The notes under the pieces were generated by a model. That model was given only the letters and a program-made list of their open reading frames with translations, was not told the origin of the DNA and ran no database searches. DNA of 17,536 nucleotides from a virus. Made by a program: the position numbers and the translations under genes. Shown in pieces: positions 2,321 through 15,557 of this stretch (position 1 is the first letter of the stretch; each line of letters begins with the position of its first letter). The stretch lies in UHGV virus genome UHGV-1676750. One strand, 5' to 3'.

Positions 2321-2343
2321 ACGGACAAAAAGGAGAAAATAAT

Positions 2344-2568
2344 ATGATTAAATCACTGATCACGGGCCGAGAATACGAAGAAAATAACTGCATTTATATC
2401 ACAAACATGTTGCAAGCGCAGCGCTATCTCTCCTATCTCGGCCCCGAGTACCTTTTAGATATTCTCTACACAGGTACATACAGAAAGGATTCCTTAGTTT
2501 TTGTTTTTCAGCGTTGCCCAGAGACACGCAAAGCAAAGGAACTATGGGATAAGCACGAACTAAACTAA
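2344..2568 (+). CDS. Hypothetical small protein (74 aa)
   Basis: ATG at 2344 with AGGAG at 2331-2335. No recognisable motif. Confidence 0.6.
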   Translation: MIKSLITGREYEENNCIYITNMLQAQRYLSYLGPEYLLDILYTGTYRKDSLVFVFQRCPETRKAKELWDKHELN

Positions 2569-2586
2569 AAAAGCGAGGTGTACTAC

Positions 2587-2808
2587 ATGGACGCATCCAT
2601 ACTAGAAACACTTGCTCCAATCATCGGTGATACGCCCGTATCTGTGCAAATTAGCGCAGCACTTGAGCCAATGGCCTCAAAAAACTACGTGCACGATAAC
2701 TACGTCACACTCGATGATTTTGAAGAATTAAAAAGACAATTTGAAGCGCTAGTCGGAGATACGTCTGTTTCTGAACAAATTTCTACGGCGCTTAAAAATA
2801 ATAAATAA
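2587..2808 (+). CDS. Small fibre-motif protein (73 aa) carrying two copies of the VGDT-x-V-x-x-QI module
   Basis: ATG at 2587 with GAGGTG at 2575-2580; the track start at 2578 is a GTG inside the RBS. Contains IGDTPVSVQISAAL and VGDTSVSEQISTAL. Confidence 0.65.
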   Translation: MDASILETLAPIIGDTPVSVQISAALEPMASKNYVHDNYVTLDDFEELKRQFEALVGDTSVSEQISTALKNNK

Positions 2809-2835
2809 AACAATTCGTAAAAGGATGTGATAAAA

Positions 2836-3201
2836 TTGAGCACAAAAAAACTGCAAGTTTTAGATTATAAAATTAAGCAGGCTGAAAACGCTGATACTGT
2901 AGATAATAAGCACGCTTCTGACTTCGCATCCGCTACTGATATGAGCACGGCGCAAAATAATATTAGCGACCTTCAGGCAAAAGTCGGAGATACGCCTGTA
3001 TCTACGCAAATTACAAATGCTATCTCTTCAAACCGTATAGTTTACGTTCAAAACGAAGAGCCAGTTGATGCACCACCTGGATCGCTATGGGTGAATTTAG
3101 AATTGCAAAATACGGATGACTTTGTATCTGTTTATAAAGAAATTTTAATATTTGGAATACAATACGTTGCGCTTGTTGATAGTGATACTTTGATAATATG
3201 A
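2836..3201 (+). CDS. Short tail-fibre-like protein with one VGDT module and an EP…PPGSLW motif
   Basis: Probable TTG start at 2836, 10 nt after AAGGA (2821-2825); the GTG at 2827 is too close to the RBS. Contains KVGDTPVSTQITNAI and EEPVDAPPGSLWVNLE. Confidence 0.6.
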   Translation: MSTKKLQVLDYKIKQAENADTVDNKHASDFASATDMSTAQNNISDLQAKVGDTPVSTQITNAISSNRIVYVQNEEPVDAPPGSLWVNLELQNTDDFVSVYKEILIFGIQYVALVDSDTLII

Positions 3202-3211
3202 GGTGATGATA

Positions 3212-4171
3212 ATGGCAGATATAAGTAAAATTAATATTAAGAATGAACAATATGATATTAAAGATAATATCGCACGAACACATATAGCGAGCACAAGTAA
3301 TCCTCATGGCGTTACAGCTGAACAGGTCGGTGCAAGACCTGATACATGGATGCCTACAGCTGAACAGGTCGGTGCCGTAACGCCTGCGGAACTCAACGCC
3401 GCCATCCGCAAAGCCGCCCCGAGGAATCTGCTGGACAATTCCGATTTCAGGAATCCGGTGAATCAGAGGGGGCAGACGACATACACAAATAACGGTTACA
3501 CGATTGATCGATGGGAGCTATACAGTGGATTGATTGGCGTTTCTTCGGATGGTTATGTATCCACTAATGGACAAATGTATCAGAAAATCGAAATCGCCAC
3601 GGATAAAGTATATACATTTGCGGTCAAAACTGCCGCTGGAATAGCGGCTGTTACGGGAATCCCGGCAAACGGCGCAATCAATCCAGCAACGATTGGCAAC
3701 GCCTTGATTAAACTTGCTACGATTGGAGAGTATGTGGAAGTGGTCATCGAACCGGCTGAAGGATTCGATTTTGCTGGAGCATACTGGGCAGCCCTGTACG
3801 AAGGCTCTTACACTGCGGATACCCTTCCGGAGTACAAGCCGAAGGGGTACGGCGCGGAGCTGGCGGAATGTCAGAGGTATTACCAGCAGTTTTTAAACAA
3901 TGCGTTTTTAGGTTGGGCGACTGTTGATGCAGATGGCATTAACTTTCAGGGAATGATTCCCTGCGGCAGTATGCGGATTAATTCCCCCACGATTCTTGGC
4001 GGAATCTCCGCATGGACAGGCTTGGTTTCAATTGGCGTTTCTTCAGTTACAGTCTTTAATTATCAGGGCAATGGGATGCGGATTAACGGGTGTTTGGCGA
4101 GCAGCACAACGGCTGGCAGTGTCATTGCGATTTATGCTGCGGAAACGGTTGCATTTTCCGCTGACCTGTAA
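3212..4171 (+). CDS. Tail-fibre protein with a GC-rich, probably horizontally exchanged, C-terminal domain
   Basis: ATG at 3212 after GAGGTG. N-terminal SNPHGVTAEQVGA…PTAEQVGA is a duplicated fibre-type motif. G+C rises sharply from about 3340 onward (67% counted for 3361-3420). Confidence 0.7.
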   Translation: MADISKINIKNEQYDIKDNIARTHIASTSNPHGVTAEQVGARPDTWMPTAEQVGAVTPAELNAAIRKAAPRNLLDNSDFRNPVNQRGQTTYTNNGYTIDRWELYSGLIGVSSDGYVSTNGQMYQKIEIATDKVYTFAVKTAAGIAAVTGIPANGAINPATIGNALIKLATIGEYVEVVIEPAEGFDFAGAYWAALYEGSYTADTLPEYKPKGYGAELAECQRYYQQFLNNAFLGWATVDADGINFQGMIPCGSMRINSPTILGGISAWTGLVSIGVSSVTVFNYQGNGMRINGCLASSTTAGSVIAIYAAETVAFSADL

Positions 4172-4185
4172 AGGAGGAATGACAA

Positions 4186-4563
4186 ATGGAATATGAAAAT
4201 CCCTATATCGTGTATGTGAAAACCAATTCCAGCGGCTACATCACCGCCGTCAATTCCTCCGCTTTCCTGACGGACACTACGGACTGGACAGAAATCGACA
4301 GCGGCTATGGCGACAAATACCACCACGCGCAGGGAAACTACTTCCCCCAGCCAATCATCACCGACGGTGGTGCATACCGATATCGTCTGGTGGATGGAAA
4401 GCCTGTGGAATGTACCGCAGAGGAGATTGCGGAGCAGGAGGAGGCAATCAAATCTTCTATTATTACTGTACCAACTGCCGAGGAGCGCATTGCAGAGCTT
4501 GAAGCGCAGAATGAAATGTTACTTCAATGCGTACTCGAAATGAGTGAGACAGTTTATGCGTAA
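4186..4563 (+). CDS. Hypothetical protein directly downstream of the fibre gene; possible fibre-associated or chaperone-like protein (assigned by position only)
   Basis: ATG at 4186 with AGGAGG at 4174-4179. Shares the elevated G+C of the preceding fibre C-terminus. Acidic, helical-looking C-terminus. Confidence 0.55.
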   Translation: MEYENPYIVYVKTNSSGYITAVNSSAFLTDTTDWTEIDSGYGDKYHHAQGNYFPQPIITDGGAYRYRLVDGKPVECTAEEIAEQEEAIKSSIITVPTAEERIAELEAQNEMLLQCVLEMSETVYA

Positions 4564-4603
4564 AATATTATTTAACATACTTTTTGGAAAAGGAGGAGAA
4601 GAC

Positions 4604-4735
4604 ATGATGGCTATGTTATGGGCACAGCAAATTATGCTTGGCAAGAAGACCTTTGCGCAGGTTCCTCGTCTACTAAAAGACAAGGTTCGTGAGATTCTAG
4701 TAGATTCTGGCTGCGAAGATCTAATTGCAGAGTAA
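4604..4735 (+). CDS. Small protein (43 aa), possibly XkdX-like (low confidence)
   Basis: ATG at 4604 with AGGAGG at 4591-4596; the longer track ORF from 4544 lacks an RBS. The size and position after the fibre and fibre-associated genes resemble the PBSX xkdV-xkdW-xkdX order. Confidence 0.45.
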   Translation: MMAMLWAQQIMLGKKTFAQVPRLLKDKVREILVDSGCEDLIAE

Positions 4736-4772
4736 TCTGAACGAATATTACGCTAGGAGGTGCAAATAAAAA

Positions 4773-5195
4773 ATGGCAGAGTATATAACAAAAATTAGAA
4801 CTATGAATGGCGACTTGCAATATGACTATAATTCACTGTATGACAAACCAGAATCTGATACTCAATTAGAAAAATCAGGGGCGTTTGCCGATGCTCAGGT
4901 GGTTGGAAATAAAATTAAGAGCATAAATACACAACTGAATACCATTAATAGTCAGATTACAGAGATCAAGAATAGCACTCACGTTCATTCTGCAAATGAT
5001 ATTACTAGTGGTACACTAAGTGTTGACAGGCTGCCAACAATTCCGATTATAAAAGGCGGAACTGGAGCTGAAAATGGGCAAGATGGATTAAAGAATTTAT
5101 TAGCATCTGGGGCAATGATTTTGTCTGCTAATCAGTATGGGACTGACTTTCCAAGCAATCCAATTGTAGGTCAAGTCTTCTTTTTAAAGGTATAA
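4773..5195 (+). CDS. Short tail-fibre-like protein with a GGTGA motif and a P…P…GQVFF motif
   Basis: ATG at 4773 with AGGAGG at 4755-4760. Contains DRLPTIPIIKGGTGAENGQDGLKNLLA, as in fibre N-terminal regions, and ends …PSNPIVGQVFFLKV. Confidence 0.65.
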   Translation: MAEYITKIRTMNGDLQYDYNSLYDKPESDTQLEKSGAFADAQVVGNKIKSINTQLNTINSQITEIKNSTHVHSANDITSGTLSVDRLPTIPIIKGGTGAENGQDGLKNLLASGAMILSANQYGTDFPSNPIVGQVFFLKV

Positions 5196-5261
5196 ATTGG
5201 TGAGCTTTATGGAAGATATTTTACAAACTAATAAGTTAGTTAGATTGGCGGTGATTGCATA

Positions 5262-6152
5262 ATGGGAAGTGCTAGTGTATCCGCACCCACAACAGAGGGG
5301 ACTGTATTTGCATCAATAAGCTGGGATACTACTCCAACAGTATCTATAAGTATAACAGGCGGATATGGAATATCATGGAGAATTAGAGGTCGCGGAACAG
5401 ATACATATGTATATTATGGTCCAACAACTTCTTCGTCTGGTACGTTTACGGCAAGTTATGGAACAAGTTATGTACTTCAAGCAGTTAGCGACGGAGGATG
5501 GAATAATACTGGTGATAGTGTATTTACCGTCACGCAAGATGTTCACACTCACTCTTATTCTTTTTATACCACTGTTGACCCAACTTGTACTGAACAAGGT
5601 TATGAGATTTGGCGTTGTAGTGGTTGTGGTGATTTAGATTATAGAAATTATACTAACGCCCTTGGACATAACACTGTCAATACTGTTGTTACCCCGACCT
5701 GTACCGAACAAGGCTATACAACTCACATTTGCTCTCGTTGCGGAGCCACCACAAGCGCTAATGATAATTATACAAGTGCATTGGGCCACAATGATGCTAA
5801 TACTGTTGTTGCTCCAACTTGCACGGAACAAGGCTACACTAAGCATATTTGTTCCCGTTGTGGAATCACTATAAGTGCTAATGATAATTACATAAATGCT
5901 CTTGGACATGCGTGGGACGATGGTGAAATTATACTAGAACCAACTTATACCGAAGATGGAATTATAAAATATTTGTGTACAAGGTGCGGCGAAACTCGTA
6001 CAGAAGCTATAGCTAAAAAAGTTGGTTCGGTGCGTATTTATAACGGTTCAACTTTTGATATTTATAGTATCTATGTACGTGGAAAAGCGCAATCATGGGA
6101 TTTATATGTGCCGTACATATATAATGGATCAAGTTGGGATTTATATAGTTAG
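5262..6152 (+). CDS. Protein with four tandem ~40-aa Cys-rich (zinc-ribbon-like) repeats; putative binding or adhesin-type structural protein
   Basis: Repeats of H-x(9-11)-PTCTEQGY-x(4)-C-[ST]-x-CG-x(10-12)-ALG; the last copy is GHAWDDGEIILEPTYTEDGIIKYLCTRCGETRTEAI. Weak RBS; a 17-codon uORF (5209-5262) overlaps the start. Confidence 0.65.
   Translation: MGSASVSAPTTEGTVFASISWDTTPTVSISITGGYGISWRIRGRGTDTYVYYGPTTSSSGTFTASYGTSYVLQAVSDGGWNNTGDSVFTVTQDVHTHSYSFYTTVDPTCTEQGYEIWRCSGCGDLDYRNYTNALGHNTVNTVVTPTCTEQGYTTHICSRCGATTSANDNYTSALGHNDANTVVAPTCTEQGYTKHICSRCGITISANDNYINALGHAWDDGEIILEPTYTEDGIIKYLCTRCGETRTEAIAKKVGSVRIYNGSTFDIYSIYVRGKAQSWDLYVPYIYNGSSWDLYS
5544..6011 (+). repeat. Four tandem ~120-bp coding repeats (Cys-rich module) inside the 5262-6152 CDS
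   Basis: Units at roughly 5544-5666, 5667-5786, 5787-5906 and 5907-6011. Units 2 and 3 are clearly similar at nucleotide level (shared …CAAGGCTA… and …GCTAATGATAATTA… stretches). Confidence 0.7.
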
Positions 6153-6163
6153 GAGGTGAATAG

Positions 6164-6880
6164 ATGCCTCAGAACATCTTTAAAATCTATGATGGTAGAA
6201 CGAACTTTTGGCAATGGGACACTAAGCAGAAATTGATTGTTTTAGATGATCGTATTACAGAAGTTCGTTTTTCTAATAGAAATATGGAACACTCAAAACG
6301 TAGACCTGTCTACACGGACAATAATGGAGTTAGAATTTGTAATGTGCCTGATGTGCTCTTGCAACTTCCTAAGAATCTTATAGCGTATGCGTGTATTAAG
6401 CAAGACGATGGGACTTGTAGCACAGTAAAAGCGGTCAAGTTTGCAGTTGCTAGACAGCCAATTCCTGCGGATTATGTGTGTGAGCAAGATGCAGTTATTG
6501 AAAACATTCTCGCAAAGATCGAGATGCTTGAGAATTTACTCAAAGAAGTTGAGTCTGGATCAAAAGAAATGAAGAAGTTCACTAGCATGGTGGAAGCTGC
6601 ACAATGGGCCAAAGAAAATGGCAACGCTGGTGACATTGTTGTCATCAAACTTGATGTAGGTTGGGTGCCTCATGTTATTGAAGACGGCAAGAGTCTAAGC
6701 GCTATTTGCAACTGTGATGGCGATGAGATTGTTCTTCAGCTCGACGGAGATGACCCCGACGGCATTAATGAAGACGAAGAAGATATGGTTCTGTATTATG
6801 ACGGTAATTATATTGACGAAAGTAACGATGTAATTCAGTATTTTGATGGCGGTTCCGCATCTGGTTTACAAACGGGGTGA
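6164..6880 (+). CDS. Hypothetical phage protein (238 aa) with an acidic C-terminus
   Basis: ATG at 6164 with AGGAGGTGA at 6151-6159. No named motif. Confidence 0.7.
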   Translation: MPQNIFKIYDGRTNFWQWDTKQKLIVLDDRITEVRFSNRNMEHSKRRPVYTDNNGVRICNVPDVLLQLPKNLIAYACIKQDDGTCSTVKAVKFAVARQPIPADYVCEQDAVIENILAKIEMLENLLKEVESGSKEMKKFTSMVEAAQWAKENGNAGDIVVIKLDVGWVPHVIEDGKSLSAICNCDGDEIVLQLDGDDPDGINEDEEDMVLYYDGNYIDESNDVIQYFDGGSASGLQTG

Positions 6881-6884
6881 GAGA

Positions 6885-7244
6885 ATGGCCGATATAAGAA
6901 AAGTAAAAACTGTATTTCAAATCAGGCGCTCGACGACTGCGGAATGGGAAGCGAATAAAGATGCAATTCCTGATGCCGGAGAGCCCTGTTTTGATTTAGA
7001 CTTTGGTATATTAAAAATTGGTGATGGAAAGACCGCTTATAAAGACCTCAAGATTATTGGTGCTGGCGCTTCAATATCTGACGATGGTCTTTATTTAATT
7101 GTTGATAATTTGCAGAAAGATATCGATGAATTAAAGATCCGCATTGAAAATATTTCTGTTGAAGATCAAATTAATGATGCTATGAGCGATATTGTGGATG
7201 ACTCAGAATTACAGCAAACTCTGGATTCTGTGTTAAATAATTAA
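6885..7244 (+). CDS. Short fibre paralogue: HylP-like N-terminal attachment domain plus a short helical tail (possibly a truncated or minimal fibre)
   Basis: MADIRKVKTVFQIRRSTTAEWEANKDAIPDAGEPCFDLDFGILKIGDGKTAYKDLKIIG matches the conserved N-terminus of Gram-positive phage fibre/hyaluronidase (HylP) proteins: FQ/K-R-R…AEW…GE…D…KIGDG…Y…L. Confidence 0.7.
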   Translation: MADIRKVKTVFQIRRSTTAEWEANKDAIPDAGEPCFDLDFGILKIGDGKTAYKDLKIIGAGASISDDGLYLIVDNLQKDIDELKIRIENISVEDQINDAMSDIVDDSELQQTLDSVLNN

Positions 7245-7263
7245 GTTAAAGGAAGTGATGAAA

Positions 7264-8679
7264 ATGGCAATTAAAAAAATCAAGACATTGTTCCAACTCC
7301 GCAGGGGAACCACTGCCGAATGGGAACTCAATAAATCCGTAGTTCCCGCCGCTGGTGAACCGTGTTTTGATCTAGACCTTGGTACACTCAAAATTGGCGA
7401 CGGCGTTAAAACCTATGAGCAATTAGATGTAATTGGCGGCGGCAATGTAGCGCTTTCTGCCGATGGCAAGTCTATCATTTTGGATGACGGCATTTTTAAG
7501 CTTGCTGGTTTTGCCGATGCTGAAACTGGTGCTCAGCCTCGCAAGAACGCCGACGGCAATATTGAGTGGGTTGTACCTTCTAGCGAAACTCTTGATGGTC
7601 TACAGACAATTGTCGCTGGTTTACAAACTGACGTTACTGGATTGCAAACTAGCGTTGCTAGTATTCAGGAGGTTCTAGCTCCATCCGATGAAGGTGCAAT
7701 GACTCTACTAGAGAGAGTTGCCGCAATTGAGGGTAAGGTTGGCGAAAGCTCTGTTGATGAAAAAATTAACACTGCCTTTGACGACTTTATGGCAAAAGTT
7801 TCTGATGATGGCATCGTCAATACTGTCAAAGAACTAATTGACTATGTAGCAGACCATGCGCCCGAGGCCGCTCAGATGGCCGCTGATATTACTAGTCTGC
7901 AAGAACTTGTTGGTAACACCTCTGTTGATGCCCAAATTCTAGCTGCCATTACTACAAGCGAAGCAAAAACCGCTGCTCTTTACAAGAAAGTAAAATATGA
8001 GATTTCTTCTAAGCCCGCCGAAGCTTTAGTGGACTATAGAGAGAAAGAAATCAGAATTATGTGTCCCGCTGATACTCAATTTGAGCTTCAGAATGTTGGT
8101 CCTACTGGTGATTCTACTAGATACTATATTGGATTTAAGGCATATGCCCCTGATGGCGCTGTAAGCTTTAAGGAAGATACTAAGGCTACCATTGAAGATA
8201 CTACTATGTATTACTTTGAAGGCAATGATTTTGCTGGCACTGATGCTTATGGTCGTAAGTATAGTATTGTATGGCTACCTGTGGCAAAGCATAATGATGA
8301 TGATACTTGGACTTATTATGGTACTAATTCTAGTGCTGCCAAGTATATTGGCTGGTACTACTCTGTCGAGTGGTATGGTGCTAATGGTAAGGTTATTGCG
8401 TCTGATATCATTCGTATTAATCTAAGTAATGAGGCTTGCCATAATGTGGTTGAGCCTTATTTTATGGGCCAAGTTGTTAAGGGAGTTAGCGTTGGTGGAA
8501 CTCTGCTTGATTTGATTGACAATAAGGTTAATATTAATGCCAGTGATATTGTTAAAGGGTCTGATGAAATTGCGGTTGCTGAGGACGGGACTCTAAGCAT
8601 TGGCCAAATTAATGTGTCCAAGCTGGTGCAGGATGAAGGCTCCGAGCTAGTCTTTGATGGCGGCGGGGCTTCTAGATAA
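7264..8679 (+). CDS. Tail-fibre protein with a HylP-like N-terminal domain, GLQTxVx heptad repeats and VGxxSVD-x-x-I modules
   Basis: ATG at 7264, 8 nt after AAAGGAAG. N-terminus TLFQLRRGTTAEWELNKSVVPAAGEPCFDLDLGTLKIGDGVKTYEQL. Three 21-bp tandem heptad repeats at 7597-7659. Contains LVGNTSVDAQILAAI and KVGESSVDEKINTAF. Confidence 0.8.
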   Translation: MAIKKIKTLFQLRRGTTAEWELNKSVVPAAGEPCFDLDLGTLKIGDGVKTYEQLDVIGGGNVALSADGKSIILDDGIFKLAGFADAETGAQPRKNADGNIEWVVPSSETLDGLQTIVAGLQTDVTGLQTSVASIQEVLAPSDEGAMTLLERVAAIEGKVGESSVDEKINTAFDDFMAKVSDDGIVNTVKELIDYVADHAPEAAQMAADITSLQELVGNTSVDAQILAAITTSEAKTAALYKKVKYEISSKPAEALVDYREKEIRIMCPADTQFELQNVGPTGDSTRYYIGFKAYAPDGAVSFKEDTKATIEDTTMYYFEGNDFAGTDAYGRKYSIVWLPVAKHNDDDTWTYYGTNSSAAKYIGWYYSVEWYGANGKVIASDIIRINLSNEACHNVVEPYFMGQVVKGVSVGGTLLDLIDNKVNINASDIVKGSDEIAVAEDGTLSIGQINVSKLVQDEGSELVFDGGGASR

Positions 8680-8726
8680 CAACAAAAACTAAATAAAATT
8701 TTAATCATTAAAGGAGAAATGTAATC

Positions 8727-10664
8727 ATGGCTATTGAAAAAACACTTAATACTCGTCTGAAACTTCGTTACGATTCTCATGAGAATTGGCTTGCTAATGA
8801 TCCTACTCTGCTTGCAGGCGAAGTCGCTCTAAGTGCTGTATCTGTTAAGCAGGACGGCGTAGTTAACGAAGTCCCCAGCGTACTAATTAAAGTTGGCGAT
8901 GGCACTCATAAGTATTCCGAACTAGATTATGCTTACGCGAGGGCGGCAGATGTCATCGAGCAGGCTAAGAGTGCAGAAAAGCTAACCGATTTCATCAACA
9001 ATGTAATTGCTAGTGCTGGTATTGCCACTGACGAGGCTCTAACTACTCTAGCTGGTAAGGTTACTACTGCCGAAGGCAAGATCACTGCTCTAGAAGGTCT
9101 AGTTGGCGATACTGCCGTAGCCACTCAGATTCAGAATAAGATTGATGCTCTGAAACTATCCGATACCTATGCCGCAAAGTCTCACACTCATACTAAGTCT
9201 GAGATTACTGATTTTGCGCATACTCATGTTATTGGTGATGTAACTGGTTTAAGCGATTCTATTGCTGAAGCTAAGCAGACTGGCCTTGACGCAACTTCTG
9301 CTCTTAATACTTATAAGAATACTAATGATGCTGCTGTAAAGGCCAATACTGATGCAATTGCTGCTATTAACAACGCTGACACTGGTATTCTTGCTCAGGC
9401 TAAGACTTATGCTGACGGAAAGGATGCCGCTATTACCGCTGCTAAGAATGCTGCTGATGCTGCTCAGGCTGACGTTGACGCCCTAGAAGCTAAGGTCGGC
9501 ACTGTCCCTGCAGATACCACTGTTGTCCAGATGATTGCTGACGCCCAGGATGCTGCTACTTATGATGACACTGCTCTAAAGGGTCGTGTAAGCGCAAACG
9601 AGACTGCTATTAGCAAGCTAAATGGGCTTGTCGGTGACACCGCTGTCGCCACTCAGATTAGCACTGCTGTTTCCGATGCTAAGACTGAGCTAAAGGGTAG
9701 CGCTTCCGATACCGATGCTTCTGCTACTATTGCTGGCGCTAAGAAGTATGCTGACAAGCTAGATGCTGCTATGGATGCTCGTGTTGATGCTCTAGAGGCT
9801 GCTGTTGGCGAAGATGGTTCTGTTGCAGAGAAGATCACTGCCGCAGTTGAAGCTCTTGACGCTACCGTTGAGACCGCTGCAATCCCAGAAGGTCAGGACG
9901 GTATTTATGTAAAGGTTACCGAGGTTGATGGTAAGCTAACTGCTGTTGAGGCTACTATCGAAGTATCTAATGAGATTAATGCTGCTAAGTCCGAGCTTGA
10001 GGACAAGATTGGTACTGTTGCCGAGGGTAAGACTCTTGCTGGTCTAATCGCTGACAATGCTGCCGCTATTGAGGCTCATAAGACTGCGGTCGATGCTAAG
10101 GTAACCACTCTAATTGGTGCTGATACCGACAAATCCGTGCGTACTATTGCTAATGAGGAACTGGCTGCTCAGCTGATTCCTGAGAACGCTAAGGAATCTC
10201 TAAATACCCTACAGGAGATCGCTGCTTGGATTCAGGCTCACCCCGATGATGCCGCTACAATGAATACGGCCATTGCAAACCTAAAGGCGCTAGTTGGTGA
10301 CGAAAGTGTTAACGCTCAGATTAATACTGCCGTTGACAACCTAAAGAATAACGAGATTAAGAACGCAACTGATCGCATTGCAGATCTAGAGGCTGATACT
10401 CACACTCATGCCAACAAGGCCCTGCTCGATTCTTACACTCAGACCGAAGCTGACCTGGCTGACGCCGTTGCTAAGAAGCACGAGCACGCTAATGCTACCG
10501 AACTGGCCAAGTTCGTTGAGGGTGATAAGGATAAGCTAGATGCCGCCGTTCAGACTGTTACCGCTGGCACTGGCCTCACCGCAACTAAGACTGGTACTGA
10601 TGTAGCTATTGGATTTGACGATACTGTCACTTTCGTGTTTGACTGCGGCGATAGCTCCATCTAA
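8727..10664 (+). CDS. Long tail-fibre protein: HylP-like N-terminus (variant), Ala-rich helical shaft, three VGD-x-x-V-x-x-QI modules and HTH/HxH motifs
   Basis: ATG at 8727 with AAGGAG at 8711-8716. Contains LVGDTAVATQIQNKI, LVGDTAVATQISTAV, LVGDESVNAQINTAV, SHTHTKSEITDFAHTHV and DTHTHANKALLDSY. G+C is visibly higher than in flanking AT-rich genes. Confidence 0.8.
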   Translation: MAIEKTLNTRLKLRYDSHENWLANDPTLLAGEVALSAVSVKQDGVVNEVPSVLIKVGDGTHKYSELDYAYARAADVIEQAKSAEKLTDFINNVIASAGIATDEALTTLAGKVTTAEGKITALEGLVGDTAVATQIQNKIDALKLSDTYAAKSHTHTKSEITDFAHTHVIGDVTGLSDSIAEAKQTGLDATSALNTYKNTNDAAVKANTDAIAAINNADTGILAQAKTYADGKDAAITAAKNAADAAQADVDALEAKVGTVPADTTVVQMIADAQDAATYDDTALKGRVSANETAISKLNGLVGDTAVATQISTAVSDAKTELKGSASDTDASATIAGAKKYADKLDAAMDARVDALEAAVGEDGSVAEKITAAVEALDATVETAAIPEGQDGIYVKVTEVDGKLTAVEATIEVSNEINAAKSELEDKIGTVAEGKTLAGLIADNAAAIEAHKTAVDAKVTTLIGADTDKSVRTIANEELAAQLIPENAKESLNTLQEIAAWIQAHPDDAATMNTAIANLKALVGDESVNAQINTAVDNLKNNEIKNATDRIADLEADTHTHANKALLDSYTQTEADLADAVAKKHEHANATELAKFVEGDKDKLDAAVQTVTAGTGLTATKTGTDVAIGFDDTVTFVFDCGDSSI

Positions 10665-10686
10665 TTTTATAGCCTAATTCTAAGCA

Positions 10687-10717
10687 AGTTGCCTCGTTAT
10701 TCGTAACGGGGCAACTT
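10687..10717 (+). promoter_or_regulatory. Intergenic hairpin without a U-tract (RNA structure or processing/regulatory element)
   Basis: AAGTTGCCTCG (10687-10697) pairs with CGGGGCAACTT (10707-10717): 11-bp stem with one G-U wobble and a 10-nt loop. No T-run follows. Confidence 0.35.
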
Positions 10718-10743
10718 CAATAAGAAAGGATGAGGACTTCTTT

Positions 10744-11589
10744 ATGCCAAATAAAGAAATATTGGCCCGTGTCAAGCAAAAAAGAGATACGAGCGCTAAC
10801 TGGGAAGCACGAAATCCAGTTATTTTAAATGGCGAGATTATTCTCGTAGATACCAACGCAGGCGAGCTTAGAGCTAAAATTGGCGATGGTACAAAAACGT
10901 ATACTCAGCTACCTTTTTCAGATGAAGCTTTAAGAAGCCTCATCAATGCAAATAAGGTTACGGTAGATAGTGCGCTGTCTTCTACTAGTACCAATCCTGT
11001 ACAGAATAAAATTGTAAACGCCGCCATTAGCAACTTGAATACTTTGGTTGGTGATACCTCTATATCTTCTCAAATCGAAACTGCTGTTGCTTCAAAGCTC
11101 GACGCCGCAGATGCGACTTGGGCTCAGATTTATGATTCTGGCGCAATTACATCAGAAGTAAACTCTATTGCGGGCATTGATATCACAGGTTATAAGAGTC
11201 TAATGGTTGCTGTTAAGTGTGTAAACACTACGAATACCGCCAGTACAAGAGCTGGTGCGGTAATTTTTACTGGCAATAATCAAGACTATGCGTTTAATAA
11301 TCTTTTTAGCAACCTGATTAAAAATGGTACAACAACTTCCGGTGCTATGGCTAAATTTAAGATCGTGGACGGTTTTATTATTTGTGAGACTGCTATGAGA
11401 GCAATTACTGCGGATGGCATTTTATCTGATGCCGAAGGGGTAGGAATTGATACATTAGCCCCAGTAAGTAGTGGTCTTATTAAGTGTACAAACGCAGTCA
11501 CTACAATGGCCGTTTCTAGTGCGGCTCAGTCTGCAGACCATTACTACGGTGTTGGTAGTAGAGTTATTGTTTGGGGGTGTAAGGTATAA
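10744..11589 (+). CDS. Tail-fibre protein with a HylP-like N-terminal domain and one VGDT module
   Basis: N-terminus ILARVKQKRDTSANWEARNPVILNGEIILVDTNAGELRAKIGDGTKTYTQLPF. Contains LVGDTSISSQIETAVASKL. Confidence 0.8.
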   Translation: MPNKEILARVKQKRDTSANWEARNPVILNGEIILVDTNAGELRAKIGDGTKTYTQLPFSDEALRSLINANKVTVDSALSSTSTNPVQNKIVNAAISNLNTLVGDTSISSQIETAVASKLDAADATWAQIYDSGAITSEVNSIAGIDITGYKSLMVAVKCVNTTNTASTRAGAVIFTGNNQDYAFNNLFSNLIKNGTTTSGAMAKFKIVDGFIICETAMRAITADGILSDAEGVGIDTLAPVSSGLIKCTNAVTTMAVSSAAQSADHYYGVGSRVIVWGCKV

Positions 11590-11963
11590 TGGCAAATAAA
11601 ACAATTACAGCATGGGTAAATGGTGCAGTTCAGTCAATTAGTGTTCCAGACGTGGCATATACTGCTCCTAAAGTTACCATTGAGGACAAGGTTAGTGCTC
11701 TTATTGCTACAGTGACACTGCCAGTCGCTGATTGGGCGGGTTCAGCAAGTCCGTATTATCAGACGATAGACTCTAATATTTTTACCGCCAATAGTATGGT
11801 TGATTTACAGCCAACCCCTGAGCAGCTTGCGGAATGGCAAGATGATGGACTGGCTTTTAGCACCACAAATGATAATGGAGTGGTGAAGGTATATGTTGCT
11901 GGTGGTGTACCTGCTGCCGATATTACTGTACAGATTAAGGTACAGGAGGTGGTTGTCATATGA
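11589..11963 (+). CDS. Hypothetical protein carrying a ~85-aa domain that is also present at the C-terminus of the 16021-16617 product
   Basis: TAATG overlap with the upstream gene. TLPVADWAGSASPYYQT…DITVQIKVQEV parallels TIPVNWVGTSAPYTQD…EVPIQVEVI in 16021-16617. Confidence 0.7.
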   Translation: MANKTITAWVNGAVQSISVPDVAYTAPKVTIEDKVSALIATVTLPVADWAGSASPYYQTIDSNIFTANSMVDLQPTPEQLAEWQDDGLAFSTTNDNGVVKVYVAGGVPAADITVQIKVQEVVVI

Positions 11964-12451
11964 TATATGGCAATGCAACTGGTGGCTTTGGAATGCCAAA
12001 GTCATTTGTTTTAACAGATGATAGTGGAAATGAAATGACAGGGGTTGTAACTGGTGAACAAGTTGTATTTACAGCTGGTTTAAGCGATATTAGAGCGGGT
12101 AAGGTTGCAGCCAATGCAGATGGTATTGTTACTGGTACGAAAGATATACCAGCATATCATACTACAGAAGGTCATCGAGTAATTACACCTGGAAGTGATT
12201 GTAAAATCTATATTCCTAATTACGAATATACCGGTTTACAAGCTATAGTTTGTTCATACAATACCTCTTTAGATGATAGTGTTGCCGCTAATCAAGTTGC
12301 CATTAAAGGCAATTTATATAATGTACAATCTGTAGACATATTATCTATAATTAGTATAGATAATACAGATCAGTGTATTAATTTAGGGATTACAAACACA
12401 ACTGATAATTTATTAATTATTAGATATTTTAGTTATAAGGAGATTTTATGA
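11960..12451 (+). CDS. Hypothetical protein (163 aa), Gly/Thr-rich N-terminus
   Basis: ATGA overlap with the upstream gene; AGGAGGT at 11944-11950. AT-rich (about 22% G+C counted for 12301-12360). Confidence 0.7.
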   Translation: MIYGNATGGFGMPKSFVLTDDSGNEMTGVVTGEQVVFTAGLSDIRAGKVAANADGIVTGTKDIPAYHTTEGHRVITPGSDCKIYIPNYEYTGLQAIVCSYNTSLDDSVAANQVAIKGNLYNVQSVDILSIISIDNTDQCINLGITNTTDNLLIIRYFSYKEIL

Positions 12452-12690
12452 TGGAAACGAGACGTTATGCATATAATTTTGCAGAAATTGATAATGCCAC
12501 TAATATGTGTATTGGTGTTATAACTACTACAGATCCAAACACAGAAGGTCCAACTGGTGGTGGAACAACTTTTGTTGCAATTCCAGTATATGATGAGAAT
12601 TATTCTTTAAAATATTACAATTGGGATAATGGTAAATTTTATTATGACTCTGCGTATACACAGGAGTACATTTCTCCATTACTACAATAA
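12448..12690 (+). CDS. Hypothetical small protein (80 aa)
   Basis: ATGA overlap with the upstream gene (translational coupling). No named motif. Confidence 0.6.
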   Translation: MMETRRYAYNFAEIDNATNMCIGVITTTDPNTEGPTGGGTTFVAIPVYDENYSLKYYNWDNGKFYYDSAYTQEYISPLLQ

Positions 12691-12712
12691 TTAAACAAAG
12701 GGGCGACGGATT

Positions 12713-12883
12713 ATGAATAAATATTTCTATTGTTATAGCTATCCATTAAAAGAATTTTTCAAAAAAAACGGCTTAAGTTACATTACCGCCGCTACGAATC
12801 ATTCAACAAATAAAACGTATTGGTTGTTTGAAGGATCTGAAAAATTAAATATGTTATTACAAAAATGGCGTTTAAATAAATAA
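12713..12883 (+). CDS. Unannotated small ORF (56 aa), hypothetical; absent from the ORF track because it is under 60 aa
   Basis: ATG at 12713 preceded by AAAGGGG. Translates to MNKYFYCYSYPLKEFFKKNGLSYITAATNHSTNKTYWLFEGSEKLNMLLQKWRLNK. Contains an A8 run at 12761-12768. The stop codon is embedded in the hairpin at 12862-12893. Confidence 0.4.
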   Translation: MNKYFYCYSYPLKEFFKKNGLSYITAATNHSTNKTYWLFEGSEKLNMLLQKWRLNK

Positions 12884-12900
12884 ACGTCATTTTCTATTTT
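12862..12900 (+). terminator. Candidate AT-rich intrinsic terminator
   Basis: AAAATGGCGTTT (12862-12873) pairs with AAACGTCATTTT (12882-12893): 12-bp stem with one G-U wobble and an 8-nt loop, followed by CTATTTT. The stem is AT-rich, hence modest stability. Confidence 0.4.
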
Positions 12901-12928
12901 ACAAATGATGTTTTGGAGGTAACTAAAG

Positions 12929-14266
12929 ATGAAGAAGTTGACGCATGAAGAATTTATTGAGAAAGTAACGAAACTCAACGAACATGTTGCAAATGGTGAG
13001 ATAGAAATATTAAGTCAGTATATAAACCAAAGAACTAAAATTAAATGTAAATGTGCCATACATAATACTATATGGGAGAGATCGGTACAAAGCCTTTACG
13101 AAAATAGTGGTTGTGAAGATTGTAAATATGAATTAAGTGGAAGAAAAAGACGGTTTTCACATGAAGAATTTGTTGAAAAGATAAAGGTTTTAAATGATGA
13201 AATTATAGTTTTGGGACATTATACAACGATGAATAAATCAATTGAATTTCAATGTAAATTTGGTCATATATGGACAGCCAAGCCTTATAGCATTATCAAT
13301 GGGCATCAATGTCCATATTGTGCTGGGCAAAAACCTATAATTGGGAATAATGACTTATGGACAACAAGACCAGACGTTGCAAGTTTATTAAAAAATCGTG
13401 ATGACGGATATGGTTTGATGGAATTTAGTCAGCGTAAAGTAATATTTATTTGTCCAACATGCGGTAACGAAATCATAAAATCAGTTCAACGTGTATCAAT
13501 AGATGGGCTTGTTTGCCAAAGATGTTCTGATGGTGTATCATATCCGAATAAATTTGCAAGAGCATTTTTAAATCAACTACTTGGTAATAATTTTAAATGT
13601 GAGTATCAACCTGATTGGGCCAAACCATATTATTATGATAATTATTTTGAATATGGTAATAAGAAATATATTTTGGAGATGGATGGCAGTTTTCATTATA
13701 TTTCAAGACAGTTGACCAAACAGTCTCTTGATGAACGAAAAAGGATTGATGCATTAAAAGATAAACTTGCTGAGCAACATAATATTCGTGTTATTCGTAT
13801 AGAGTGTATAAAATCTAATTGTAATTACATAAAGAATAACATTTTACAATCCGAGTTGAGTTTAGTTTTTAATTTATCTAAGATTAATTGGGATTTATGC
13901 GACCAAATGGCGCAAAGAAGTTTGGTTAAAGATGTTTGTAATTTATATATGAACGGAATAAAAGATTTGCATAAAATAGCAGAAATATTGCATATTAGCA
14001 AAAGTACGGTATATGTATATTTGGTTAGAGGTTCTAAGTTTGGATGGTGTGATTACGATGGGAAGAATGCTCATTACTTGAAAATTTCTATTCCAATAAT
14101 TGTACTTGATGAAAATAACAATGCTATACATAAGTTTGATAGTATTAGTGCGTGCAAAGAAGAGATGAAAAAAATGTACGGATATTCATTTGATAGAAAT
14201 ACTTTGAAAAAAGCTTGTGAGTATTCTATTTCATATCATGGATTTAACTTTAAATATGCGTATTAA
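12929..14266 (+). CDS. Multi-domain homing-endonuclease-like protein: tandem zinc-ribbon modules, a Vsr/DUF559-like PD-(D/E)xK nuclease core, a helix-turn-helix and a NUMOD1-like C-terminal DNA-binding domain
   Basis: Two ~60-aa repeats ([TS]HEEF[IV]EK…LN…C-x-x-H…W…G-x-x-C-x-x-C) and a third CPTCG…CQRCS module. KKYILEMDGSFHYI…DERKRIDALKDKLAEQHNIRVIRIE resembles the DUF559/Vsr-like endonuclease motif. KIAEILHISKSTVYVYL is HTH-like. The C-terminus IPIIVLDENNNAIHKFDSISACKEEM…YHGFNFKY parallels the C-terminus of the GIY-YIG protein. Very AT-rich. RBS GGAGGT at 12915-12920. Confidence 0.65.
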   Translation: MKKLTHEEFIEKVTKLNEHVANGEIEILSQYINQRTKIKCKCAIHNTIWERSVQSLYENSGCEDCKYELSGRKRRFSHEEFVEKIKVLNDEIIVLGHYTTMNKSIEFQCKFGHIWTAKPYSIINGHQCPYCAGQKPIIGNNDLWTTRPDVASLLKNRDDGYGLMEFSQRKVIFICPTCGNEIIKSVQRVSIDGLVCQRCSDGVSYPNKFARAFLNQLLGNNFKCEYQPDWAKPYYYDNYFEYGNKKYILEMDGSFHYISRQLTKQSLDERKRIDALKDKLAEQHNIRVIRIECIKSNCNYIKNNILQSELSLVFNLSKINWDLCDQMAQRSLVKDVCNLYMNGIKDLHKIAEILHISKSTVYVYLVRGSKFGWCDYDGKNAHYLKISIPIIVLDENNNAIHKFDSISACKEEMKKMYGYSFDRNTLKKACEYSISYHGFNFKYAY

Positions 14267-14336
14267 CAATACAAAATTAATGTTTAAAGTAATTAGTGAA
14301 ATAATAAAGTCTAAAATACTAAGGAGGAGTTTATAT

Positions 14337-15557
14337 ATGTCTAACCCCAATTTCAATCCTACGTATAGCTCGAACTTAATTTGGAGAGATGAAGACGACA
14401 CTCGTTGTATTACTGATGACCTAGATAATATCGAATCCGACATCACTGCACTCGAAACAGGCAAGGCCGACACTAACCATACACATACCGGATATGCTAC
14501 TACAGATCACACTCATACAGGCTACGCCGCAGCAGATCATACCCACACTGGCTATGCGGCGGCTGCAGACGTAACTACACTACAAAATTTGGTTGGAGAC
14601 ACTAGTGTATCTTCTCAGATCAGTACGGCTATTGCGGGCAAGGTTGATGCTGTGGAAGGTAAAGGCTTGTCTACCAATGACTATACGACAGCCGAGAAGA
14701 ATAAGCTTACTGGAATTGATACAGGAGCTAACAATTATGTGCTTCCAACTGCAAGCAGCACTACTCTTGGCGGTATTAAAACTGGGGATAACATTACTAA
14801 TTCGTCTGGTACGATTAGTCTAACAAAAAGCAATGTCACGTCAGCTTTAGGATATACTCCATTTGGCAGTAGTACGTTGTCAATGGCCAATGGTGGTACT
14901 GGCAGCGCTCAGGTTGTTAATGCTCCAAAGAATGCCATATTGAAGAAGGCAAACGATGGGAACTATGTGTGGTATACTCAGACAAAAAGTGGGGCTTTCT
15001 ACGCTACTGCAACAGATGGAGTTCCGAAATTCGGTGTACTGCCCAAGGCATTAGGTGGCACAGGTGCGGATTTCAGTAATATTCCAGCTAATGCTATTAT
15101 TCGTAATTCTGGTTCTGGCGGTAGTGACTTGTACTATTTTGCAACTGGCAATGGGGCATGCTATGCCACATCAGCTAATGGGTATCCGACTTTTGGTACA
15201 TTGCCCGTAGCGCAAGGTGGCACTGGCGAAACTACTGCTTGGACAAATGGTACAGTTACGAGTTTGAATAGTACTACTATTACATCATACCAATTTGCTG
15301 TTTTCCCCTATTTAAATAAGGCATTTATTAGGCTTAATGTGCTATTAGGTAGTGCTTTAGATGCTGACGAAGCTAGATATATAGTAATGCCGTCAACTGT
15401 TGCAACTGCACATACTGCTTTGTCTTGCTTTAATATTGCTGGATATGATATTCATTGTGGTATGGCTAGCGATAGTGGCATTTATGTAATTAATTGTGGT
15501 ACTGCTTCAATGCCCAATACTGTACGTCTTTATATTGCGGGATGGTATTCAATCTAA
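14337..15557 (+). CDS. Tail-fibre protein with an HTHTGYA triple repeat, one VGDT module and repeated GGTG motifs
   Basis: ATG at 14337 with AAGGAGG at 14321-14327; the track ORF from 14217 overlaps the upstream gene and lacks an RBS. Contains NHTHTGYATTDHTHTGYAAADHTHTGYAAA, LVGDTSVSSQISTAIAGKV, and three L-x-x-x-GGTG motifs (MANGGTGSA, PKALGGTGAD, PVAQGGTGET). Confidence 0.8.
   Translation: MSNPNFNPTYSSNLIWRDEDDTRCITDDLDNIESDITALETGKADTNHTHTGYATTDHTHTGYAAADHTHTGYAAAADVTTLQNLVGDTSVSSQISTAIAGKVDAVEGKGLSTNDYTTAEKNKLTGIDTGANNYVLPTASSTTLGGIKTGDNITNSSGTISLTKSNVTSALGYTPFGSSTLSMANGGTGSAQVVNAPKNAILKKANDGNYVWYTQTKSGAFYATATDGVPKFGVLPKALGGTGADFSNIPANAIIRNSGSGGSDLYYFATGNGACYATSANGYPTFGTLPVAQGGTGETTAWTNGTVTSLNSTTITSYQFAVFPYLNKAFIRLNVLLGSALDADEARYIVMPSTVATAHTALSCFNIAGYDIHCGMASDSGIYVINCGTASMPNTVRLYIAGWYSI
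14475..14564 (+). repeat. Three tandem 30-bp coding repeats, each encoding [ND]HTHTGYA-x-x
   Basis: aaccatacacataccggatatgctactaca / gatcacactcatacaggctacgccgcagca / gatcatacccacactggctatgcggcggct. Confidence 0.75.

Follow-up and report, generated by a model that had tools for sequence, protein, structure and literature searches.

A short element that recurs in the window (the whole stretch of 17,536 nt that was analyzed) belongs to a family of hundreds of copies of a 17-mer, ACAATACAAAATTAATG, which is a gene-boundary signal in a clade of uncultured phages of 90-170 kb. On balance, and with some reservation, we favor the view that this box is a putative regulatory site, similar to an operator or a stoperator, which may also supply homology for recombination in the manner of the promoter-early stem-loops (PeSLs), and that it is not the scar of an insertion. 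To our knowledge, short repeats dispersed over gene boundaries are on record for only a few groups of phages, in the form of the PeSLs of T4-type phages and the stoperators and Start-Associated Sequences (SAS) of mycobacteriophages. The box would add to those groups an uncultured clade of large gut phages, in which one 17-nt signal serves promoter spacers, transcript starts and intercistronic gaps, and in which the same boxes frame unrelated homing endonucleases. If the box is the site of a regulator, the 17-mer would offer a handle for finding that regulator, and for phages that have no cultured representative, transcription units would become readable from sequence; if it is also a point of recombination, this would account for the entry of mobile genes into structural operons with the expression of the downstream gene left intact. 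For the purposes of annotation, it would be wrong to interpret the repeat as the scar of an insertion.

Copies of the element in the window

The earlier note had described two copies of a 21-nt element, TTGACAATACAAAATTAATGT at 857-877 (copy 1) and TTAACAATACAAAATTAATGT at 14263-14283 (copy 3), identical at 20 of 21 bases. Both copies exist and their repetition is not random, since three matches with up to 3 mismatches are found in the window against 0.00 expected from 200 dinucleotide-preserving shuffles; however, a third copy, TTGACAACACAAAATTAATGA at 1816-1836, had been overlooked, and the conserved unit comprises 17 nt instead of 21, the core of copy 3 being a perfect 17-mer at 14266-14282. 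Upon loosening the threshold to 6 mismatches only two further matches appear, with 6 mismatches each, and shuffled windows average 3.7. The three copies are the following:

857-885, plus strand: box copy 1 (17-mer at 860-876), within the consensus promoter TTGACA-N17-TGaTATACT, to which it contributes the -35 hexamer and the spacer
1816-1836, plus strand: box copy 2 (17-mer at 1819-1835), which codes for TTQN at the C-terminal end of the GIY-YIG endonuclease (gene HEG1) and includes its stop codon
14263-14283, plus strand: box copy 3, whose first 17-mer base is overlapped by the stop codon (TAA, 14264-14266) of the zinc-ribbon endonuclease gene HEG2

The promoter at copy 1 is the best promoter-like site of the window, with 11 of 12 matches plus the TG of an extended -10, whereas copies 2 and 3 have no -10 element and are thus partial units in comparison. 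Copy 2 spans the TAA at 1831-1833 that closes the GIY-YIG gene (1006-1833), and the overlap of copy 3 with an endonuclease stop codon, as originally noted, was confirmed. The placement of copy 3 at the 3' edge of an AT-rich endonuclease island was right, as the G+C content, 0.28-0.33 from about 12150 to 14300, reaches 0.38-0.48 beyond this copy. The AT-rich stretch also covers, besides the endonuclease, two resident genes of low G+C (11960-12451, 32.5%; 12448-12690, 32.1%).

The 17-mer in related phages

The conserved unit is sharply bounded and strand-specific, and in a logo built from the seed CAAAATTAA alone (295 sites) conservation drops abruptly at either end of the 17-mer. In fetched loci of related 90-170 kb uncultured phage contigs, 255 distinct box sites were found at up to 2 mismatches, with densities of up to 7-8 copies per 7-10 kb (L177, L178), and the exact 17-mer occurs in at least 120 stretches of IMG/VR viral contigs, frequently several times per contig. 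The host group of this clade is probably Clostridia. A scan of a genome collection for hosts gave five contigs of metagenome-assembled genomes (MAGs), labelled Acetatifactor, Faecalimonas, Clostridium, Clostridia and Kiritimatiellae, which are probably binned phage contigs and for this reason an uncertain guide to host and lifestyle. Cultured relatives were found neither by megablast with the whole window against 50,697 phage records nor by tblastn with the virion structural protein encoded at 21-845, and the records listed for a 32-nt BLAST query, the box in its promoter form, were generic look-alikes of AT-rich promoters. One of these look-alikes is a record of Phass-1, filed under the Caudoviricetes code 15 clade. 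A literature search for the exact sequence of the box, for variants of it and for the reverse complement gave no paper.

At about 40 sites (class A) the box is embedded as TTG, box, TGnTATAAT, and serves as the -35 region and spacer of a consensus sigma-A promoter, and at about 50 sites (class B) a sigma-A -10 ends 0-3 nt 5' of the box, which then lies at the transcript start or shortly past it; further sites with a -10 about 14 nt upstream of the box were identified by eye. Immediately 5' of an RBS lie 73 box sites, while 17 of the 255 precede a terminator hairpin and one box ends 1 nt 5' of a tRNA-Gln gene at the start of a tRNA operon. The 17-mer is not palindromic, i.e. the site is asymmetric, and boxes are almost always in the same orientation as the genes, a co-oriented ORF starting within 110 nt at 162 of the 237 evaluable sites, against 9 with a divergent ORF. 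The genes upstream of boxes are diverse, and therefore the box is not specific to endonucleases: among 101 upstream ORFs, Pfam GIY-YIG is found in 4 and DUF4379 in 2, and the others include RecJ-like proteins, helicases, a methylase and the virion structural protein (phrog_2729; 21-845). A strong enrichment of endonuclease genes 5' of boxes is unsupported by these 6 of 101 ORFs with endonuclease domains. In addition, about 20 unrelated ORFs terminate in frame within the box as T(I/V/T)QN followed by the stop codon.

Based on these contexts, we hypothesize that the 17-mer would be the DNA recognition site of a putative phage transcription regulator, acting as an operator where the box overlaps a core promoter and in a stoperator-like manner where it lies between genes. 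Nevertheless, of the 157 non-promoter copies 111 (71%) end 10-24 nt 5' of the start codon, the remainder lying at up to 125 nt. This position suits a role in RNA or translation equally well, and it would also result from a compact intergenic spacing. We regard it as rather unlikely, but worth weighing, that the box acts in RNA, for which the SAS of Cluster K mycobacteriophages (PMC3203893) are both the nearest parallel and a precedent. The copies are strictly on the sense strand, and the box makes up most of the 5' UTR after class-B promoters. On the other hand, the copies in class-A promoter spacers are upstream of the transcript that they drive, often just past a terminator, one copy precedes a tRNA operon, some copies lie before terminators with no gene start close by, and copies 2 and 3, together with the boxes of the endonuclease-free relatives L009 and L018, are 50-70 nt away from the start codon with an unconserved sequence in between.

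Endonuclease insertions and the adjacent boxes

The second part of the reading that we favor concerns recombination. On the side of the fiber gene the window has the following features:

10665-10679, plus strand: empty site for a second HEG2-family insertion, with no box and only TAATT (10675-10679) in common with it
12688-12699, plus strand: left junction of the HEG2 insertion, TAATTAAACAAA, identical at 9 of 12 bases to TAA plus the first nine box bases
12713-12883, plus strand: small DUF5659-like gene (phrog_21297, 2e-15), belonging to the inserted segment
12903-12931, plus strand: 29-nt translation-initiation box, second copy, ending in the ATG of HEG2
12929-14266, plus strand: HEG2, zinc-ribbon endonuclease gene (phrog_559, 6e-44; PF14311 DUF4379, 42.6 bits, cut-off 24.5)
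14337-15557, plus strand: tail/head-fiber-like gene (phrog_18608, phrog_10588), with homologues in L009 and L018

HEG2 is a predicted endonuclease of the phrog_559 type, mobile by its presence or absence among relatives, and both it and the DUF5659-like gene are missing from L009 and L018; it also shows weak NUMOD1 and HTH_7 matches, and has no sequence match to any solved structure nor in NCBIfam. The box directly follows the inserted segment that carries the two genes (12691-14262). HEG2 borrows as its stop codon a TAA whose overlap with the box is at base 1, and the phrog_559 endonuclease of another relative (L118:140-1426) ends in precisely this way. In the window as in L009 and L018, the region upstream of the fiber gene contains a box. 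In L009 this is a variant, TTAACAACATAAAATTAATA (5928-5947), located 3 nt past the stop codon of the orthologue of 12448-12690, and in L018 the TAA stop of the same orthologue leads straight into, and is overlapped by, the variant cTAACAATATAAAATTAATT; the remainder of the spacer before the fiber gene is not conserved. The variant box is resident in these endonuclease-free relatives, which might in principle bear footprints of an endonuclease since lost. Both share a C-to-T variant whereas copy 3 is a perfect consensus, which suggests that HEG2 may have arrived by recombination in or beside a resident box, the variant being replaced with a perfect copy. The left junction of the segment is possibly a half-box, although the resemblance is weak. 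Exact-protein look-ups with the products of 12448-12690, HEG2, the fiber gene and 1894-2271 revealed no near-isogenic genome without HEG2, since every hit was either a fragment of the same strain or came from a strain with HEG2, and a metagenome scan for HEG2-less genomes gave two distant relatives (45-46% identity) with no box nearby.

A second insertion of the same family is seen in the strain L209, in which positions 1376-6147 match 10675-15446 of the window at 98.2% identity and positions 200-1375 stand in place of 10665-10674. The inserted DNA is a second endonuclease of the HEG2 family with a box at its 3' end, and 12 of the 17 box bases lie within it; endonuclease cassettes of this clade can bring the box at their 3' end. 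Since the empty site shares only TAATT with the box, this insertion was made without box-to-box homology on its right side. The left flank is 79.7% identical, and the mismatches on the right side are concentrated in the first 500 nt.

The capsid-side site, occupied by HEG1, is framed by boxes on both sides (copies 857 and 1816) and comprises:

892-958, plus strand: Y-shaped structured leader RNA, downstream of copy 1 and followed by a U-run
980-1008, plus strand: 29-nt translation-initiation box, ending in the ATG of HEG1
1006-1833, plus strand: HEG1, free-standing GIY-YIG homing endonuclease gene, assigned by profile matches
1832-1857, plus strand: terminator-like hairpin directly 3' of copy 2, a 10-pair stem followed by a T-run

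According to the profile search, HEG1 carries a GIY-YIG catalytic domain and NUMOD-type DNA-binding modules (PF01541, 34.6 bits, cut-off 22.6; NUMOD3, PF07460, 54.5 bits, above cut-off; TIGR01453, 133.8 bits, cut-off 56.05; phrog_314, 5e-50). The leader RNA folds into three stems (P1, 892-897/953-958; P2, 900-906/916-922; P3, 927-935/944-952), with 17 of 22 pairs maintained through two-sided changes (RNAalifold, 6 relatives); P3 was also flagged as a terminator-like hairpin, and Rfam holds no family that matches the window at gathering thresholds. The possibility that this RNA is an antisense partner of the box and Shine-Dalgarno (SD) sequence (CCUCAUUAAU against AUUAAUGAGG) was rejected because the complementary stretch of the leader is not conserved in L004 or L007. 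The similar RBS context attributed to the two endonuclease genes is real and extends further than claimed, the two 29-nt start boxes matching at 25 of 29 bases, and the same start box is found 5' of other endonucleases (L004, L118) and of a 27-aa remnant (L007).

In related phages, the HEG1 homologues of L182, L148/L203 and L173 have the box at their end too, read in an identical register to give T(I/T)QN and stop, and the arrangement of box plus hairpin is seen again in L148/L203 and L145. In the latter the capsid-side site holds an HNH endonuclease with a promoter box 5' and a box and terminator 3', so that one site with the same flanking boxes has different endonuclease families inside. GIY-YIG homologues may, however, have the box upstream, downstream or not at all. 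The HEG-less allele of L005 retains a single degenerate box and hairpin, those of L001/L002 and L003 have no clear box, and L004 carries a capsid-side endonuclease with no 3' box; consequently, cassettes are not always bounded by boxes. Cutting of the box itself by the endonucleases was rejected as well, since endonuclease-bearing genomes retain many intact boxes, one of them even directly 3' of the endonuclease gene.

Being repeated at so many gene boundaries, the box would supply short stretches of homology through which cassettes, including endonuclease genes, may be inserted, swapped or lost, although 17 nt is short for homologous recombination. A more elaborate proposal would make the 17-mer both the operator/stoperator of a putative global regulator and the crossover box of a Clostridia-associated cassette system, in which at least three endonuclease families are framed by a common 29-nt start box and a 17-nt end box. 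It would amount to a counterpart, built on promoters, of the shuffling of integrons or PeSLs, and as such be new for Gram-positive phages; we consider it doubtful in this full form.

That the element is instead specific to endonuclease insertion, as a junction marker, a duplication or a scar of mobile genes, is unlikely. The earlier note had proposed a candidate insertion-junction marker, and part of this proposal stands: the element sits exactly at the 3' junction of the insertion, the corresponding site in L009 and L018 does end at a variant of it, the stop codons of both endonucleases in the window are overlapped by it, most of the L209 box came with the inserted DNA while the window provides the box-less empty site, and several relatives of HEG1 and HEG2 end in or at a box. 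Nevertheless, the box is one of hundreds of clade-wide copies, most of the 255 sites lie beside ordinary genes, in L009 and L018 it precedes the fiber gene with no endonuclease present, and unrelated ORFs end within boxes as well. Homing endonucleases act through double-strand-break repair and create no target duplication. A target-site duplication or scar was discarded for the element: the empty sites on the fiber side carry a box, but the left junction is at most a 9/12 half-match, and the empty site for the L209 insertion, i.e. the window itself, is box-less. The box marks a boundary and not a scar, being a clade-wide promoter and gene-start signal that endonuclease genes abut or carry at their ends.

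A similarly low probability is assigned to a box devoid of function, i.e. the most conserved piece of the clade's promoter, which recombination and gene conversion would have spread and homogenized, with partial promoters remaining at the joints of cassettes, a purely PeSL-type concerted evolution. The bracketing of HEG1 by boxes, a box-edged indel between two genomes that are 98% identical, and the several endonuclease families found in one site between the same boxes would all agree with it, and conserved spacers are also known in the early promoters of T4-type phages (PMC2839356). Recombination remnants should, however, be ragged, and yet the conserved block stops sharply at 17 nt in all contexts; moreover, before the fiber gene the box has persisted at the orthologous place amid a diverged spacer, a sign that selection acts on the box as such.

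It is improbable that copy 3 is a working sigma-A promoter (TTAACA-N16-TAAAGT) that drives the fiber gene after the endonuclease insertion. It scores 9/12 in the promoter scan and the box serves strong promoters elsewhere as -35 and spacer, but 9/12 corresponds to background (48 sites seen against 55 expected in shuffles), the -10-like hexamers of L009 and L018 are found at spacings of 14 and 19-21 nt, so that no conserved -10 precedes the fiber gene, and copy 2 and the L209 copy lack a -10 entirely. Slightly less probable still is that the 17-mer serves as the promoter of an RNA polymerase or sigma factor encoded by the phage. The sharp 17-nt edges, strand specificity, co-orientation with genes and intergenic position right before genes (the tRNA operon included), sometimes overlapping the end of the upstream gene, recall T7-type promoters. 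Against this reading, at most copies the SD begins 0-6 nt past the end of the box, so that a transcript from there would have almost no leader, the loci covered, a partial set, showed no gene for an RNA polymerase, and the embedding in sigma-A promoters in a fixed register would require an extra assumption.

Comparison with known phage repeats

Among known repeats, the box finds its closest parallels in the following four. PeSLs are mobile regulatory cassettes of T4-type phages, for which recombination between copies was shown as mini-circles (PMC2839356, PMC4122927). As in PeSLs, a repeated intergenic unit lies on a consensus host-sigma promoter (in copy 1 and the class-A sites), and non-essential or mobile genes are flanked by the repeat, which also bounds indels between close relatives; HEG1 lies between 857 and 1816 and the indel between L209 and the window is box-edged, with L002, L003 and L004 as exceptions. 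PeSLs often pair the promoter with a stem-loop; here the coupling varies, with a structured RNA that ends in a hairpin and U-run after copy 1, a hairpin after copy 2, none after copy 3, and a box plus terminator at 17 of 255 sites overall. In contrast to PeSLs, the sequence and the phages are unrelated, the signals are of the Gram-positive type and the polymerase is of the DnaE type, the unit is only 17 nt long, and most copies are devoid of a -10 and lie before an RBS or after another promoter, a placement not described for PeSLs.

Likewise, the stoperators and operators of Cluster A mycobacteriophages such as L5 (PMC9283540) are short asymmetric sites that each genome carries in large number, both inside promoters and in the narrow gaps between genes, oriented with transcription and often touching start or stop codons. 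The box shares the asymmetry, the copy number, the contexts and the single orientation (162 against 9), but has 17 nt versus 13, shows no sequence similarity, and its repressor is putative. SAS, whose function was unknown when they were described (PMC3203893), are also asymmetric repeats specific to a clade and of a single orientation, which lie within a few bases of start codons, may contain the stop codon of the upstream gene and are denser in non-structural regions; however, they include the SD core, while the box is upstream of the SD and is also found in promoter spacers, before a tRNA operon and before terminators. The fourth parallel, SPBRE, belongs to the Bacillus prophage SPbeta, a large phage of Firmicutes, in which this 15-bp repeat occupies some ten promoter regions; it was first recognized in silico and later found to be the site of the master repressor MrpR (PMC10516654). 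The copy number of the box is far higher, and among the 40 records listed, of 81 that matched the 32-nt BLAST query, none is from SPbeta.

The free-standing homing endonuclease genes of T4-type phages (seg, mob) are intergenic, of the GIY-YIG and other families, and have their own expression signals. Diverged co-conversion tracts in their flanks resemble those around the L209 insertion. Here, in contrast, the 29-nt start box and the 17-nt end box are common to two endonuclease families that are unrelated, and a single site with its flanking boxes may house one family or another.

The repeat and its family

Three copies of a 21-nt repeat are found in the window at up to three mismatches, against 0.00 expected from 200 shuffles, and the only two extra matches at up to six mismatches both carry six, which is the shuffle background. 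The repeat is genuine and far from random. The features concerned are the following.

857-877: copy 1 of the repeat, TTGACAATACAAAATTAATGT
892-958: structured leader RNA
980-1008 and 12903-12931: the start box, a 29-nt translation-initiation stretch
1006-1833: HEG1, GIY-YIG endonuclease gene
1816-1836: copy 2, TTGACAACACAAAATTAATGA
1894-2271: zinc-protein gene
12929-14266: HEG2, zinc-ribbon endonuclease gene
14263-14283: copy 3, TTAACAATACAAAATTAATGT
14337-15557: fibre-like gene

An earlier note had reported that copy 3 differs from copy 1 at one base and overlaps the stop codon of the endonuclease gene; direct comparison agrees on the first point, and the HEG2 stop (TAA, 14264-14266) indeed falls within the element. 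Copy 2, which that note did not list, spans the HEG1 stop (TAA, 1831-1833). The 17-mer core of the repeat, hereafter the box, is read in different registers by the two genes, the HEG1 stop being box bases 13-15 and the last A of the HEG2 stop being box base 1, and consequently the overlap does not reflect a shared coding tail.

The conserved 17-mer, ACAAYACAAAATTAATG, matches at least 120 viral contig stretches, often several times per contig, and 255 distinct sites at two or fewer mismatches were counted in 1.84 Mb of loci fetched from related uncultured phage contigs. A logo built from the 9-mer seed CAAAATTAA alone (295 sites) displays exactly 17 strongly conserved positions and none outside.

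Contexts of the box
Class A, about 40 sites: tcTTG, box, TGnTATAAT; a consensus extended -10 promoter with the box as its spacer and as the end of its -35 hexamer
Class B, about 50 sites: separate TTGACAAA...TGnTATAAT promoter, the -10 ending 0-3 nt 5' of the box
Class S, 73 sites: no recognisable promoter; Shine-Dalgarno (SD) within 0-8 nt after the box
Class T, 17 sites: box, then terminator hairpin
L186 236-527: consensus promoter, conserved leader, box, then a tRNA-Gln/Gln/Pro cluster, the box stopping 1 nt short of the first mature tRNA

In class B, and at further sites read by eye with the -10 about 14 nt 5' of the box, the box is at the transcript start or just after it. Boxes are present within core promoters, as spacer or at the transcript start, and also in short gaps between genes. 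An ORF starts on the same strand within 110 nt at 162 of 237 evaluable sites, and divergently at nine, and the box end lies 10-24 nt from the start codon at 111 of the 157 non-promoter sites. Copy 1 has the class A form and is the top promoter-like site of the window. Up to 7-8 boxes per 7-10 kb occur where early or replication genes lie (L177, L178), and the window, which is structural, has three over its 17.5 kb.

The box is not endonuclease-specific. The Pfam matches of 101 non-redundant ORFs with their 3' end inside or just 5' of a box include RecJ-like domains, helicases, a C5 methylase, PhoH and deaminases among others, with GIY-YIG in 4/101 and DUF4379 in 2/101, and other GIY-YIG homologues have the box 5', 3' or not at all. 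About 20 unrelated ORFs stop in frame within the box as T(I/V/T)QN*, and about 22 stop at a TAA or TGA overlapping box base 1, which makes stop overlap a general property of the box. A protein family of about 300 aa with a CRCEECQ-like C-terminal motif, phrog_30716, is regularly followed by ...CCTCAAAA.., box and terminator (L146, L132, L169, L204 and about ten more loci).

Endonuclease insertions and the box

Locus L009 is 84% identical to the window over 6735-12000 and matches again from 14352; 12691-14262, comprising a DUF5659-like gene and HEG2, is absent from both L009 and L018. Both keep a variant box directly after the 12448-12690 orthologue, 55-70 nt 5' of the fibre start codon: TTAACAACATAAAATTAATA in L009, beginning 3 nt past the stop codon, and cTAACAATATAAAATTAATT in L018, where the stop TAA runs into the box. 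In a three-way alignment of the spacers only the box and the SD form conserved blocks, and no -10-like hexamer lies at a fixed distance from the box. Being the lone conserved block besides the SD, the box is resident in these two genomes lacking HEG2 and under selection there. The insertion lies directly 5' of the box, from which HEG2 takes its stop codon. At box base 7 both genomes without HEG2 have T for C, while the window copy is a perfect consensus; this would fit an exchange of the resident box for one brought by a cassette.

In a near-isogenic pair the box is seen to move together with an endonuclease. L209 (Logan assembly, SRR25667306) shares 98.2% identity with window 10675-15446 and has an extra 1,176 nt between the counterparts of 8727-10664 and 10744-11589, encoding a HEG2-family protein split by one in-frame stop codon; this gene may be decaying. 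The insert ends in TAA-tctca-ACAATACAAAATTAATT and identity restarts at TAATTCTAAGCA, window 10675, so that 12 of the 17 box bases belong to the insert, and the empty site of the window (TAAttttatagccTAATT, 10662-10679) contains no box. At the 5' end of the insert a degenerate box, TAAAACAAAAGATTAATA, was read by eye (14/17 plus a 2-nt insertion). The left flank is 79.7% identical to the window and roughly half of the 84 right-hand mismatches lie within the first 500 nt, a divergence of the kind that co-conversion typically leaves around a homing event. Another phrog_559 endonuclease (L118:140-1426) has its TAA over box base 1, exactly like HEG2, with a terminator next.

On the capsid side, gene 21-845 is followed by the copy 1 promoter, the structured leader, the start box, HEG1, copy 2, a terminator-like hairpin and the RBS of the zinc-protein gene.

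Capsid-side site in related loci
L182, L148/L203: GIY-YIG homologues ending in the box, same register
L145: HNH endonuclease, 3' end with box and terminator
L004, L118: different endonuclease, 442-aa type, from the same start box; L004 without 3' box
L007/L155: 27-aa remnant
L001/L002, L003: no endonuclease; terminator, then RBS; clear box absent
L005: no endonuclease; single degenerate promoter copy and hairpin

One site framed by shared boxes thus hosts endonucleases of at least three families, and the boxes are not obligatory. The earlier note had proposed the element as an insertion-junction marker at the 3' edge of an AT-rich endonuclease island. This proposal is partly right: the element does mark the 3' boundary of the insertion, where the empty sites of L009 and L018 also have it, and cassettes can bring it. 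However, it is found clade-wide, and at this locus a version existed already in the absence of the endonuclease. The island edge holds in that G+C stays at 0.28-0.33 between about 12150 and 14300 and rises past the element, but the stretch also includes two resident low-G+C genes. The repeat is a clade-wide gene-boundary box, probably regulatory, and not an insertion scar.

Proposed recognition of the box and comparable systems

Based on its sharp 17-nt boundary, exact conservation across diverged genomes, strict orientation and presence in core promoters as well as short gaps between genes, we hypothesize that the box would be recognised as DNA by a putative protein. Operator/stoperator sites of the L5 type behave similarly, being oriented and located in promoters and short gaps (PMC9283540), and a comparable case is the SPbeta repeated element, discovered in silico and later proven to be the site of the master repressor (PMC10516654). 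A role in RNA or translation, as for the Start-Associated Sequences of Cluster K phages (PMC3203893), fits the tight spacing between box and start codon, but leaves the 40 promoter-spacer copies, the tRNA leader and the distant copies unaccounted for. Whatever its primary function, the box shares the genomic behaviour of the PeSL cassettes of T4-type phages (PMC2839356, PMC4122927), in that copies of it bracket a mobile gene, stand at the edge of an indel that separates near-identical genomes, and frame a site where unrelated genes are swapped. An endonuclease cassette with a box at its end would restore the pre-gene signal of the downstream gene, and this would lower the cost of insertion. 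The box joins the known kinds of dispersed phage regulatory repeats as a new variant.

Genomic setting, start box and leader RNA

HEG1 encodes an I-TevI-like GIY-YIG endonuclease (PF01541 and NUMOD3 above cut-offs; TIGR01453, 133.8 bits). HEG2 falls in phrog_559; its product carries a DUF4379 zinc finger of the treble-clef type, gives weak NUMOD1/HTH matches and had no match by sequence among solved structures. Elsewhere the window codes for a virion module with poor annotation. The 1894-2271 product, a small cysteine-rich protein (CxxC...CPxC) that all relatives keep 3' of the capsid-side endonuclease site, had no family match. No cultured phage is related by DNA or by the virion structural protein of 21-845; the relatives are IMG/VR contigs of 90-170 kb coding for DnaE-type polymerase, NAD-dependent ligase and RecJ-like proteins. 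MAG contigs with the labels Acetatifactor, Faecalimonas, Clostridium and Clostridia carry the box in promoter form too, which points weakly to Clostridia hosts. Window 1-17, cgacgctcttccgatct, is an Illumina TruSeq adapter tail, which makes the first 17 bases an assembly artefact, and the 5' end of ORF 21-845 may be cut off by the contig end.

The similar RBS context noted earlier for the two endonuclease genes, which are unrelated, in fact extends to 25/29 bases between 980-1008 and 12903-12931. In L004, L007 and L118 this start box (consensus aaatgRtgttWtggaggtaacNaaaRatg) again lies 5' of an endonuclease or a remnant; it marks the 5' edge of endonuclease cassettes. The remnant, a 27-aa ORF (MNKKEEYESY...; L007 7984-8067, also L155), begins at the start box and looks like a stump, a deletion derivative, of the L118-type endonuclease MNKKYDDYKIG....

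Directly after the copy 1 promoter, 892-958 folds into a Y-shaped structured RNA with a closing helix and two hairpins, in which pairing is kept through two-sided changes in 17 of 22 pairs (six relatives); Rfam gave no match. It also occurs in L004, L007, L145, L148 and L182, only upstream of an endonuclease gene or remnant, and may regulate endonuclease expression. The loop of the second hairpin, CCUCCAC (937-943), is complementary to GUGGAGG (973-979) just past the U-run, and in L145, L148 and L182 loop and partner change jointly to CUCUCA and UGAGAG, as read by eye where the alignment is out of register. This complementarity suggests a pseudoknot or an anti-SD/SD-mimic switch.
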